64,000 bases of DNA from Escherichia phage vB_EcoM_DalCa: the sequence record NC_054908.1. The stretch is one strand, 5' to 3'. This document shows positions 36,647 through 37,664 of this stretch, piece after piece; position 1 is the first letter of the stretch, and each line of letters starts with the position of its first letter. The position numbers and the translations under genes are program-made. The notes under the pieces were generated by a model that ran no database searches, was not told the origin of the DNA, and saw nothing but the letters and a program-made list of their open reading frames with translations.

Positions 36647-36722
36647 TGGTCGAGGCAGTAGGGATCGAACCTACGACCTAGGACTTAGAAGGTCCTTGCT
36701 CTTCCTTCTGAGCTATGCCCCG
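36647..36722 (-). tRNA. tRNA-Arg (anticodon UCU), CCA encoded
   Basis: Manual fold of reverse complement: 7-bp acceptor stem, anticodon arm AGGAC-CUUCUAA-GUCCU, T-arm GTAGG-TTCGATC-CCTAC; 76 nt. Confidence 0.8.
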
Positions 36723-36726
36723 TAAT

Positions 36727-36802
36727 TGGGGTGACCGATGGGAGTCGAACCCATGACTACGAGAATCACAATCTCGAGTTCTACCAACTGAACTACGGCC
36801 AC
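36727..36802 (-). tRNA. tRNA-His (anticodon GUG), CCA encoded
   Basis: Manual fold: D-stem GTTC/GAAC, anticodon arm CGAGA-UUGUGAU-UCUCG, T-arm ATGGG-TTCGACT-CCCAT, discriminator C; not part of the 8-tRNA T4 set. Confidence 0.75.
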
Positions 36803-36916
36803 ATTAATACCTACTCCAACAATCAAGATGTCTTCACACGAAATTAAGAGAAGAGTGATCAGTTCAACCCCTATAATCGCGTCAAGTAGATATTAATGTG
36901 ACAGTTGTCACAAATT

Positions 36917-36991
36917 TGGCGGACGTGATAGGATTCGAACCTATAACCAATCGCTTAACAGGCGATCGCTCTGCCATTGAGCTACACATCC
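36917..36991 (-). tRNA. tRNA-Asn (anticodon GUU), CCA encoded
   Basis: Manual fold: anticodon arm ATCGC-CUGUUAA-GCGAT, T-arm with GGTTCGAATCC; not part of the T4 set. Confidence 0.75.
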
Positions 36992-36995
36992 AAAT

Positions 36996-37082
36996 TGGTG
37001 GGGAGTGGTGGAGTCGAACCACCCGAGTCGCAATGACAATGGATTTACAGTCCACACCGCTACCTCTACGGGATAACTCCCC
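36996..37082 (-). tRNA. tRNA-Tyr (anticodon GUA), class II long variable arm, CCA encoded
   Basis: Manual fold: acceptor GGGGAGT/ACTCCCC, anticodon loop CUGUAAA, long variable arm, T-arm GGTGG-TTCGACT-CCACC; 87 nt; not part of the T4 set. Confidence 0.7.
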
Positions 37083-37091
37083 AAATTAATT

Positions 37092-37166
37092 TGGTGGCCC
37101 TGGGTGGAATTGAACCACCATCTGGCGATTATGAGTCGCTTGCTTGAACCTTCCAGCTACAGGGCC
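37092..37166 (-). tRNA. tRNA with anticodon CAU (Met or lysidine-modified Ile), CCA encoded
   Basis: Manual fold: acceptor GGCCCTG/CAGGGCC, anticodon loop CUCAUAA, T-arm GGTGG-TTCAATT-CCACC; cannot separate Met from Ile(LAU) by eye. Confidence 0.65.
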
Positions 37167-37167
37167 T

Positions 37168-37243
37168 TGGTGCTGATTGACGGAATCGAACCGCCGACCT
37201 TCTCATTACAAGTGAGTTGCTCTACCTACTGAGCTAAATCAGC
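37168..37243 (-). tRNA. tRNA-Thr (anticodon UGU), CCA encoded
   Basis: Manual fold: acceptor GCTGATT/AATCAGC, anticodon loop CUUGUAA, T-loop TTCGATT. Confidence 0.75.
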
Positions 37244-37248
37244 AAAAC

Positions 37249-37338
37249 TGGCGGAGGCGATAGGATTTGAACCTATGAGTCGCCGGAGCGACTGCCGGTT
37301 TTCAAGACCGGTGCATTAAACCACTCTGCCACGCCTCC
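37249..37338 (-). tRNA. tRNA-Ser (anticodon UGA), class II, CCA encoded
   Basis: Manual fold: acceptor GGAGGCG/CGCCTCC, anticodon arm CCGGT-CUUGAAA-ACCGG, long variable arm; 90 nt. Confidence 0.8.
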
Positions 37339-37340
37339 AG

Positions 37341-37414
37341 TCTCCGTGGCAGGATTTGAACCTACGACATTCTACTCCCAAAGCAGACGCTCTACCAAAC
37401 TGAGCTACACGGAG
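37341..37414 (-). tRNA. tRNA-Pro (anticodon UGG), CCA not encoded
   Basis: Manual fold: acceptor CTCCGTG/CACGGAG, anticodon loop UUUGGGA, T-loop TTCAAAT; 3' end abuts tRNA-Ser 5' end, consistent with the T4-type Pro-Ser dimeric precursor. Confidence 0.75.
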
Positions 37415-37424
37415 TAAATTAAAT

Positions 37425-37498
37425 TGGAGCGGATAATGAGAATCGAACTCACATCATCAGATTGGAAGTCTGAGGTAATACCATTATACGATATCCGC
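37425..37498 (-). tRNA. tRNA-Gly (anticodon UCC), CCA encoded
   Basis: Manual fold: acceptor GCGGATA/TATCCGC, anticodon arm with loop CUUCCAA, T-loop TTCGATT. Confidence 0.8.
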
Positions 37499-37503
37499 AA
37501 ATT

Positions 37504-37590
37504 TGGTGCGAGAAGTGGGACTCGAACCCACAAGGAAATCATTCCGCAGCATTTTAAGTGCTGTGCCTTTACCAATTTGGCCATTCTCGC
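37504..37590 (-). tRNA. tRNA-Leu (anticodon UAA), class II, CCA encoded
   Basis: Manual fold: acceptor GCGAGAA/TTCTCGC, anticodon arm CAGCA-CUUAAAA-UGCUG, long variable arm; 87 nt. Confidence 0.8.
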
Positions 37591-37591
37591 G

Positions 37592-37664
37592 CTGGGAATA
37601 AAGGACTCGAACCTTTGCATCCTGGAATCAAAATCCAGTGCCTTACCAACTTGGCTAATTCCCA
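37592..37664 (-). tRNA. tRNA-Gln (anticodon UUG), CCA not encoded
   Basis: Manual fold: acceptor TGGGAAT/ATTCCCA (U1-A72), anticodon arm CTGGA-UUUUGAU-TCCAG, T-arm AAAGG-TTCGAGT-CCTTT; 3' end abuts tRNA-Leu as in the T4 Gln-Leu dimeric precursor. Confidence 0.75.

Follow-up and report, generated by a model that had tools for sequence, protein, structure and literature searches.

Escherichia phage vB_EcoM_DalCa carries an eleven-gene Tequatrovirus tRNA cluster with a structured leader RNA in front of a tRNA-His lacking an encoded G-1

Within a window of 64,000 nucleotides (nt) from the genome of Escherichia phage vB_EcoM_DalCa (sequence record NC_054908.1), eleven transfer RNA (tRNA) genes were located on the minus strand at positions 36647-37664. 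This segment is very probably part of the tRNA/stable-RNA operon known from Tequatrovirus members of the fPS-65/HP3/G29 type. The 11-tRNA cluster as such is ordinary for its genus, already known and widely deposited. New leads are a structured RNA directly preceding tRNA-His, referred to as the His-leader in the following, and the tRNA-His gene itself, which lacks the G residue at nt -1 (G-1).

As deduced from its sequence, the window belongs to a T-even phage of the genus Tequatrovirus. The 1.5 kb surrounding the tRNA cluster share 99.9% identity with Yersinia phage fPS-65, the Escherichia phages G29, YUEEL01 and HP3 and many others, all of them Tequatrovirus members, and the same 11 tRNAs are annotated in many of these records. 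Furthermore, the cluster is positioned between the trna.2-4 open reading frames (ORFs) and the rnaD-rnaC-terminator stretch, is co-oriented with these elements and starts with the block Gln-Leu-Gly-Pro-Ser-Thr, as expected for the operon of this genus. The segment comprising tRNA-Tyr, tRNA-Asn, the spacer and tRNA-His was found in 185 phage records at a coverage of at least 80%. The original prediction, which was made from the sequence alone, had offered lineage-specific codon-usage adaptation as one explanation. Since approximately 185 deposited genomes hold the same segment, many of them with these tRNAs annotated, the cluster is not a lineage novelty.

Genes for tRNAs were called by applying ARAGORN to the whole window and by means of the Rfam tRNA model RF00005 (gathering threshold 29 bits). 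ARAGORN reported exactly 11 tRNA genes in the window, all within 36647-37664 on the minus strand, and all 11 passed the Rfam threshold, ten of them with 59.9-74.1 bits (E-values 1e-10 to 1e-14) and tRNA-Tyr marginally with 30.3 bits. The predicted number of genes was thus recovered by both tools, and the predicted coordinates, order and anticodons match the ARAGORN output exactly, including the cloverleaves of tRNA-His, tRNA-Asn and tRNA-Tyr. In the direction of transcription, the genes are:

37591..37664, minus strand: tRNA-Gln (UUG); no encoded CCA, abuts tRNA-Leu; Rfam 67.4 bits; 66/74 identical to T4
37504..37590, minus strand: tRNA-Leu (UAA); CCA encoded; 86/87 identical to T4
37425..37498, minus strand: tRNA-Gly (UCC); CCA encoded; 74/74 identical to T4
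37340..37414, minus strand: tRNA-Pro (UGG); no encoded CCA; 1 nt to tRNA-Ser; 63/75 identical to T4
37249..37338, minus strand: tRNA-Ser (UGA); CCA encoded, unlike T4; ~87/91 identical to T4
37168..37243, minus strand: tRNA-Thr (UGU); CCA encoded; 73/76 identical to T4
37092..37166, minus strand: CAU tRNA (most likely Ile2 type); CCA encoded; 47/77 identical to T4 tRNA-Ile
36996..37082, minus strand: tRNA-Tyr (GUA); long variable arm, atypical D arm; CCA encoded; 86/87 identical to T6
36917..36991, minus strand: tRNA-Asn (GUU); CCA encoded; identical to RB9 tRNA-Asn
36727..36802, minus strand: tRNA-His (GUG); C73 and CCA encoded; G-1 not encoded (nt -1 is T)
36647..36722, minus strand: tRNA-Arg (UCU) of RB3/RB9 type; CCA encoded; 74/76 identical to RB9, 48/79 to T4

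Intergenic gaps amount to 0-10 nt throughout the cluster, except for the interval between tRNA-Asn and tRNA-His, for which the predicted length of 114 nt was found. An encoded CCA is missing in tRNA-Gln and tRNA-Pro only, both running into the next tRNA as previously proposed, and the other nine genes encode it. The annotation of tRNA-Tyr varies between records (tRNA-Val in UAB_60, tRNA-OTHER in HP3.1 and Pseudo-GTA for the Pet-CM3-4 homologue), which fits its low Rfam score. In tRNA-Thr, an A27-A43 mismatch is located atop the anticodon stem, where T4 has C27-G43; moreover, this tRNA features G40, as in T4, versus C40 in the published E. coli site of PARIS AriB.

The tRNA featuring the anticodon CAU, for which Met and Ile had both been considered, is most likely an AUA-reading tRNA-Ile2 of the lysidine type and does not correspond to the T4 tRNA-Ile gene. 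Its best E. coli match is annotated as tRNA-Ile in 5412 of 5426 complete genomes, with 76-82% identity over the full length among the matches listed. In the alignment, K-12 tRNA-Ile(CAT) shows the same acceptor 5' strand (GGCCCT) and the same anticodon stem-loop (GCGACTCATAATCGC), i.e., both are shared with E. coli tRNA-Ile2 (ileX/ileY), whereas the D arm and the T arm differ, with an overall identity of about 79-82%. Furthermore, the acceptor pairs C4-G69 and C5-G68 are present. Together with an Ile2-type anticodon stem-loop, these pairs represent the TilS determinants. In the codon comparison described below, AUA is enriched 4.4x in the phage, and AUG reaches 0.86x. In most records the gene is labelled tRNA-Met, and it was also named tRNA-Met in a study from 2008 (PMC2330249).

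In order to relate the tRNA complement to codon demand, ratios of phage frequency to E. coli frequency were calculated from 81 window ORFs (17.7k codons, 35% GC) and 39 annotated K-12 genes (14.7k codons). The ratios obtained are:

AGA: 7.6x, matching tRNA encoded
AUA: 4.4x, matching tRNA encoded
GGA: 3.6x, matching tRNA encoded
ACA: 3.3x, matching tRNA encoded
UCA: 3.0x, matching tRNA encoded
UUA: 2.1x, matching tRNA encoded
Tyr codons: 1.83x, matching tRNA encoded
Asn codons: 1.68x, matching tRNA encoded
His codons: 0.77x, matching tRNA encoded
Lys codons: 2.1x, no matching tRNA

Enrichment of Tyr and Asn codons falls on UAU (2.45x) and AAU (2.73x), respectively, and Asp codons are enriched 1.36x with no matching tRNA.

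Concerning the three extra tRNAs, it is close to an even call that they mainly represent spares against host defence, directed against Septu and retron-Eco7 in the case of Tyr, against PARIS AriB in the case of Asn and marginally His, and against colicin-E5-type nucleases cleaving Tyr, His, Asn and Asp tRNAs. GUN anticodons, present in the Tyr, Asn and His tRNAs alike, are the target class of colicin E5. Septu cleaves tRNA-Tyr, and infection is restored by overexpression or amplification of the T6 tRNA-Tyr, while T4, which is devoid of a tRNA-Tyr gene, cannot escape Septu (PMC13096335, Chihara et al. 2026). The window tRNA-Tyr is identical to this T6 tRNA at 86 of 87 positions, the sole difference being located at position 41. 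As cited in the same study, T5 tRNA-Tyr evades retron-Eco7 (PMC11555353, via PMC13096335). For PARIS AriB, E. coli tRNA-Asn(GUU) was described as secondary target, with T5 tRNA-Asn aiding escape, and probable in vivo cleavage products originating from tRNA-His(GUG) were reported (PMC12409363). The window tRNA-Asn features G39 and G41 and thereby departs from the AriB site, for which U39 and C41 are given in PMC12409363. However, the T6 tRNA-Tyr is itself cleaved by Septu and needs amplification, the experiments cover T6 and T5 tRNAs rather than Tequatrovirus tRNA-Asn or tRNA-His, and tRNA-Lys, the main target of PARIS and PrrC, is not encoded in the window. Moreover, demand for Tyr and Asn is truly higher in the phage, so the two roles are not exclusive.

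It is unlikely that the three extra tRNAs serve phage codon or amino acid demand alone, i.e., classical codon compensation, which was the leading idea of the original prediction. It agrees with the enrichment of Tyr and Asn codons, and every tRNA of the T4 set reads strongly enriched A-ending codons. In contrast, tRNA-His is present and conserved in spite of the low ratio of its codons, and Lys and Asp codons are enriched without a matching tRNA. Since His codons are under-used, the supply argument leaves tRNA-His unexplained, and given the Lys codons as well, codon compensation is only a partial explanation. Furthermore, the tRNA-Tyr gene is 96.7% identical in unrelated coliphages of ~136 kb (nomo, slur16, MaxTheCat) and ~84% identical in T5-size phages. 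This suggests horizontal spread, as of a traded cassette, and the T6 tRNA-Tyr acts experimentally against Septu (PMC13096335).

In this phage, supply and anti-defence roles probably coexist. The tRNAs would top up the host pool for codons over-used by a phage of 35% GC (AGA, AUA, GGA, ACA, UCA, UUA, Tyr and Asn codons), and at least tRNA-Tyr, probably tRNA-Asn and possibly tRNA-His would provide spare parts when host defence nucleases destroy the corresponding host tRNAs.

The interval between tRNA-Asn and tRNA-His had been regarded as a spacer. This designation did not hold, as the interval contains a conserved structured RNA element:

36803..36897, minus strand: His-leader, conserved structured RNA of 95 nt; 14-bp closing helix AUUAAUAUCUACUU / GAGUAGGUAUUAAU around two hairpins; 3' end located at nt -1 of tRNA-His

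The RNA of the 114-nt interval including the leader showed a minimum free energy z-score of -4.36, and none of 200 shuffled sequences folded as well. Consensus folding by means of RNAalifold, based on 6 and then 10 variants, yielded the closing helix of 14 base pairs (bp) enclosing two hairpins. In total, 13 distinct leader variants of 91-107 nt from 7 genera were compared, and the closing helix is paired at 14/14 positions in every one of them, despite six versions of the helix sequence and partial replacement of the interior. When the closing helix is combined with a 3-bp helix and the second hairpin of 4 bp, 99% of the alignment cells are paired, versus 28-46% with the partners slid. Six pairs changed on both sides, and 0/500 shuffles reached this pairing. 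Many pairs are G-U, corresponding to A-C on the opposite strand, and the covariance model built for the leader scored 112.8 bits in sense versus 18.7 bits in antisense orientation. Three held-out genomes were recognised at 85, 48 and 43 bits (range 42-85). Irrespective of the upstream tRNA, nt -1 of tRNA-His is invariably the last residue of the 3' helix strand.

By blastn, the leader was matched in 354 phage records; most of the matches listed have no feature beneath, and none names the leader. Leader and tRNA-His are conserved together in Karamvirus, Jiaodavirus, Gelderlandvirus, Roskildevirus, Winklervirus and Kagamiyamavirus. In these six genera, the module is flanked by tRNA-Gln upstream and tRNA-Ser downstream, within clusters of 12-16 tRNAs. 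Their leaders are 78-89% identical where blastn aligns, and their tRNA-His genes up to 98.7%, while the leaders of EcS1 and CkP1 were recognised by the covariance model only. Sequence and length of the interior differ across these genera, but the closing helix is intact in all of them. The model found nothing in T4, T6 and RB9, all of which are devoid of tRNA-His, nor in a Vequintavirinae phage encoding a related tRNA-His, nor in a mycobacteriophage. Clusters of Karam-, Jiaoda- and Gelderlandvirus feature further long gaps (Asn-Asp ~250 nt, Asp-Met ~130-160 nt, Trp-Gly ~155 nt), which could hold further structured RNAs.

Several other identities were considered for the element. Screening against Rfam gave no match at gathering thresholds and, at E<=10, only chance matches to miRNA and lncRNA families of 5-13 bits. 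A decayed tRNA, a known ribozyme or a riboswitch was rejected, as no such match appeared at that cut-off and CUGAUCA does not represent a hammerhead core. A relationship with rnaC or rnaD was likewise discarded, since both stable RNAs match 36021-36278 only (blastn, word size 7, E<=1). A small ORF is not supported either, as its ATG is not conserved (CTTG in the window) and its reading frame extends into tRNA-His. Literature searches on stable RNAs of phages turned up nothing specific.

An interval acting only as spacer, as internal sigma-70 promoter for the His-Arg block or as tRNA remnant, with no function at the RNA level, is improbable: T4 literature describes two tRNA subclusters under separate transcriptional control, TTGACG and TATTAAT-like hexamers do occur in the interval, and leader interiors differ between genera, but the minus-strand scan gives no sigma-70-like site there, TTGACG is not conserved (TTCAAC in Jiaodavirus, with the helix kept), TATTAAT would start transcription inside a tRNA, no tRNA match appears even at E<=10, and the pairing retained in 13/13 variants through double compensatory changes and G-U pairs, the excess of the sense over the antisense score and the fixed end at nt -1 of tRNA-His all point to an RNA.

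For the leader, we regard it as equally probable either way that it constitutes a previously undescribed structured-RNA family of Tevenvirinae tRNA operons (91-107 nt, at least 7 genera, ~350 genomes), functioning as a dedicated tRNA-His processing module or as an excised stable small RNA that plays a part of its own during infection. The leader would be excised from the polycistronic precursor, with the cut that RNase P makes at the tRNA-His 5' terminus giving rise to the leader 3' end. As a processing module, its helix might serve for entry of an RNase III-type enzyme between the two tRNA blocks. Alternatively, the leader might be retained as a stable small RNA comparable to T4 species 1 and 2.

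In bacteria, G-1 and C73 are the main identity elements for the histidyl-tRNA synthetase HisRS, and G-1 is normally genome-encoded (PMC9976931). The tRNA-His gene of the window lacks this encoded G-1 opposite C73: a T occupies nt -1 in the window as well as in each of the 13 relatives with a leader, C73, CCA and the GUG anticodon being kept, while E. coli hisR, aligned with the phage genes, shows a G there. A T at -1 was also observed in the related tRNA-His of the Vequintavirinae phage and in that of the mycobacteriophage, both without leader. The missing G-1 was therefore rejected as the reason for the existence of the leader, and the two traits are separable. T at -1 characterises the phage tRNA-His lineage rather than the leader. 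Literature searches on phage tRNA-His without G-1 turned up nothing specific. A widespread phage tRNA-His without the residue normally required by E. coli HisRS raises the question how, or whether, it is charged.

Next to tRNA-Asn, at the upstream border of the leader, a further element was noticed:

36897..36912, no strand assigned: perfect palindrome TGTGA-N6-TCACA, CRP-consensus-like, just 3' of tRNA-Asn

It is the single match to this pattern in the window (0.03 expected by chance) and, as seen in the fold, its RNA can pair into a hairpin of 6 bp immediately 3' of tRNA-Asn. Interpretation as a CRP site was rejected because only one half, TGTCACA, is conserved outside Tequatrovirus, in other genera. 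In lineages with TGTCAC just upstream of the leader, GUCAC is complementary to positions +1 to +5 of tRNA-His (GUGGC). Such pairing could extend the closing helix to 19 bp in competition with the acceptor stem; the feature is missing in Jiaodavirus-type variants.

The remaining elements of the operon, all in the same orientation as the tRNAs, are:

38662..38693, minus strand: predicted early promoter upstream of trna.4; position taken over from the annotated fPS-65 record, which shares 99.9% identity (coordinate offset to the window +33899)
37762..38635, minus strand: homologues of trna.2, trna.3 and trna.4 (ORFs), upstream of and co-oriented with the tRNAs; based on T4 and RB9 annotation
36278..36628, minus strand: ORF of 116 amino acids (351 nt), function unassigned; phrog_3355, E 8e-53
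36166..36278, minus strand: homologue of T4 rnaD (species 2 stable RNA); blastn 78.8% over 118 nt, E 3.5e-18
36021..36159, minus strand: homologue of T4 rnaC (species 1 stable RNA); blastn 99.3% over 139 nt
35943..35969, minus strand: intrinsic terminator hairpin GCCCCGACCGAAAGGUUGGGGC with U tract; a near-identical hairpin follows T4 rnaC, and fPS-65 annotates a terminator at the equivalent place

The hairpin at 35943..35969 is likely the end of the RNA operon. No Rfam family was matched by the rnaC and rnaD homologues at 36021-36278. The 116-amino-acid ORF resides inside the RNA operon between tRNA-Arg and rnaD and is not found at that position in RB9 or T4. Accommodating these elements, an operon of one orientation is proposed, with early promoters and trna.4-trna.2 upstream, followed by eleven functional tRNAs, the structured leader RNA, the inserted small ORF, rnaD and rnaC and closed by the intrinsic terminator. 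By analogy to T4 biology, polycistronic precursors would be cut by host enzymes, with tRNA 5' ends generated by RNase P and 3' ends by endo- and exonucleases and the CCA-adding enzyme. Since tRNA-Gln and tRNA-Pro lack an encoded CCA, the Gln-Leu and Pro-Ser pairs would behave as dimeric precursors.

Several points weigh against this interpretation. Without an encoded G-1, the efficiency of tRNA-His as a translational tRNA is uncertain, and the phage uses His codons less often than the E. coli genes sampled do (0.77x). The codon samples are small (17.7k for the phage; 14.7k from one 50-kb E. coli stretch) and unweighted by expression. Furthermore, protection by the T6 tRNA-Tyr works through dosage, the tRNA itself being cut by Septu (PMC13096335). 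Finally, leader and tRNA-His may represent either an acquisition of this lineage or a loss from the RB3, T2, T4 and T6 types.

Comparison with T4 shows the cluster at the same genomic location, with the trna.2-4 ORFs on one side and rnaD/rnaC/e.8 on the other. In T4, this region is composed of subcluster I (Gln to Ile), the homing endonuclease gene segB and subcluster II (Arg-rnaD-rnaC), i.e., Gln-Leu-Gly-Pro-Ser-Thr-Ile-[segB]-Arg-rnaD-rnaC. The eight T4 tRNAs and their specificities are as originally given. The stretch from trna.2-4 to tRNA-Thr is 88% identical to T4 at the DNA level, the first six tRNAs follow the same order with 63/75 to 74/74 identity, and rnaC is 99% identical and followed by the same terminator. 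The Gln-Leu and Pro-Ser junctions abut without CCA on the upstream member in both phages, so the likeness to T4 dimeric precursors that had been pointed out is real. Differences are segB, present in T4 only; tRNA-Tyr, tRNA-Asn, tRNA-His and the leader, present in the window only; the CCA of tRNA-Ser and of the CAU tRNA, encoded in the window but not in T4; and the extra ORF between tRNA-Arg and rnaD. Describing the complement as the T4 set plus three is correct insofar as His, Asn and Tyr exceed the T4 anticodon set, but the CAU tRNA (47/77) and tRNA-Arg(UCU) (48/79) are different genes with the same anticodons.

In T6, the layout is Gln-Leu-Gly-Thr-CAU-Tyr directly followed by segB, with no Asn there and no Pro or Ser in the stretch examined; its tRNA-Tyr occupies the same place after the CAU tRNA. 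RB9 (species RB3) is closer in layout and encodes ten tRNAs (Gln-Leu-Gly-Pro-Ser-Thr-CAU-Tyr-Asn-Arg) followed by rnaD-rnaC. From upstream of tRNA-Gln to the end of tRNA-Asn it is 97% identical to the window, with an identical tRNA-Asn, and with tRNA-Arg matching at 74/76 positions. Relative to RB9, the window features two insertions, namely ~190 nt more between Asn and Arg (palindrome, 95-nt leader and tRNA-His) and the 351-nt ORF between Arg and rnaD.

No segB is present in the phages T2L, RB1 and RB3, whose tRNA genes include Met(CAU), Tyr, Asn and Arg (PMC2330249, Brok-Volchanskaya et al. 2008). Accordingly, the segB-less, Tyr/Asn-bearing arrangement was already described in 2008, and the tRNA cluster itself is nothing new. 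SegB prefers a 27-bp site in T2L tRNA-Asn, distinguished from the weaker site in tRNA-Ser by G6, A16, G18, A26 and A27, and co-infection of T4 and T2L turns this region into the T4 form via SegB homing (PMC2330249). A corresponding site was read in the window:

36915..36941, minus strand: 27-bp GGTTCGAATCCTATCACGTCCGCCAAA, match to the preferred SegB site in tRNA-Asn

It contains the GGTTCRANTCC motif, the CCAR end and all five discriminating residues. A tblastn search with T4 SegB against the window gave nothing better than E=2, and the Asn-His interval is without ORF. As segB is absent and its preferred site is kept in tRNA-Asn, the phage seems to represent a segB-less recipient allele of the T2L/RB3 type. 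Unlike in T6, SegB-driven tandem amplification in cis is hence unavailable.

The T4 species 1 and 2 RNAs (rnaC and rnaD) offer an analogy for the His-leader, being small structured non-tRNA RNAs within a tRNA operon, with tRNA-type processing bounds. The leader differs from them in lacking a CCA end or a tRNA-like 3' domain and in being tied to tRNA-His rather than to tRNA-Arg.

More generally, the tRNA complement of T-even phages is linked to the traffic of homing endonucleases and to host defences that target tRNAs, which bears on the host range of phage therapy candidates. The view of the cluster as expanded relative to T4 could not be maintained, since its layout is nearest to the RB3-type 10-tRNA cluster. 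In contrast, the alternative of a different ancestral complement came close to the truth, as Tyr and Asn occur together in T2L, RB1, RB3 and RB9, and Tyr alone in T6. The DalCa cluster would thus consist of the RB3-type 10-tRNA cluster plus a cassette of structured leader and tRNA-His common to other Tevenvirinae genera. In T4, segB resides where Tyr-Asn(-His) lie in the window, and the 8-tRNA cluster would be a version remodelled around this gene. T4 is an atypical member of its genus in tRNA content, and its eight-tRNA set is best read as a derived, endonuclease-remodelled state rather than as the baseline.

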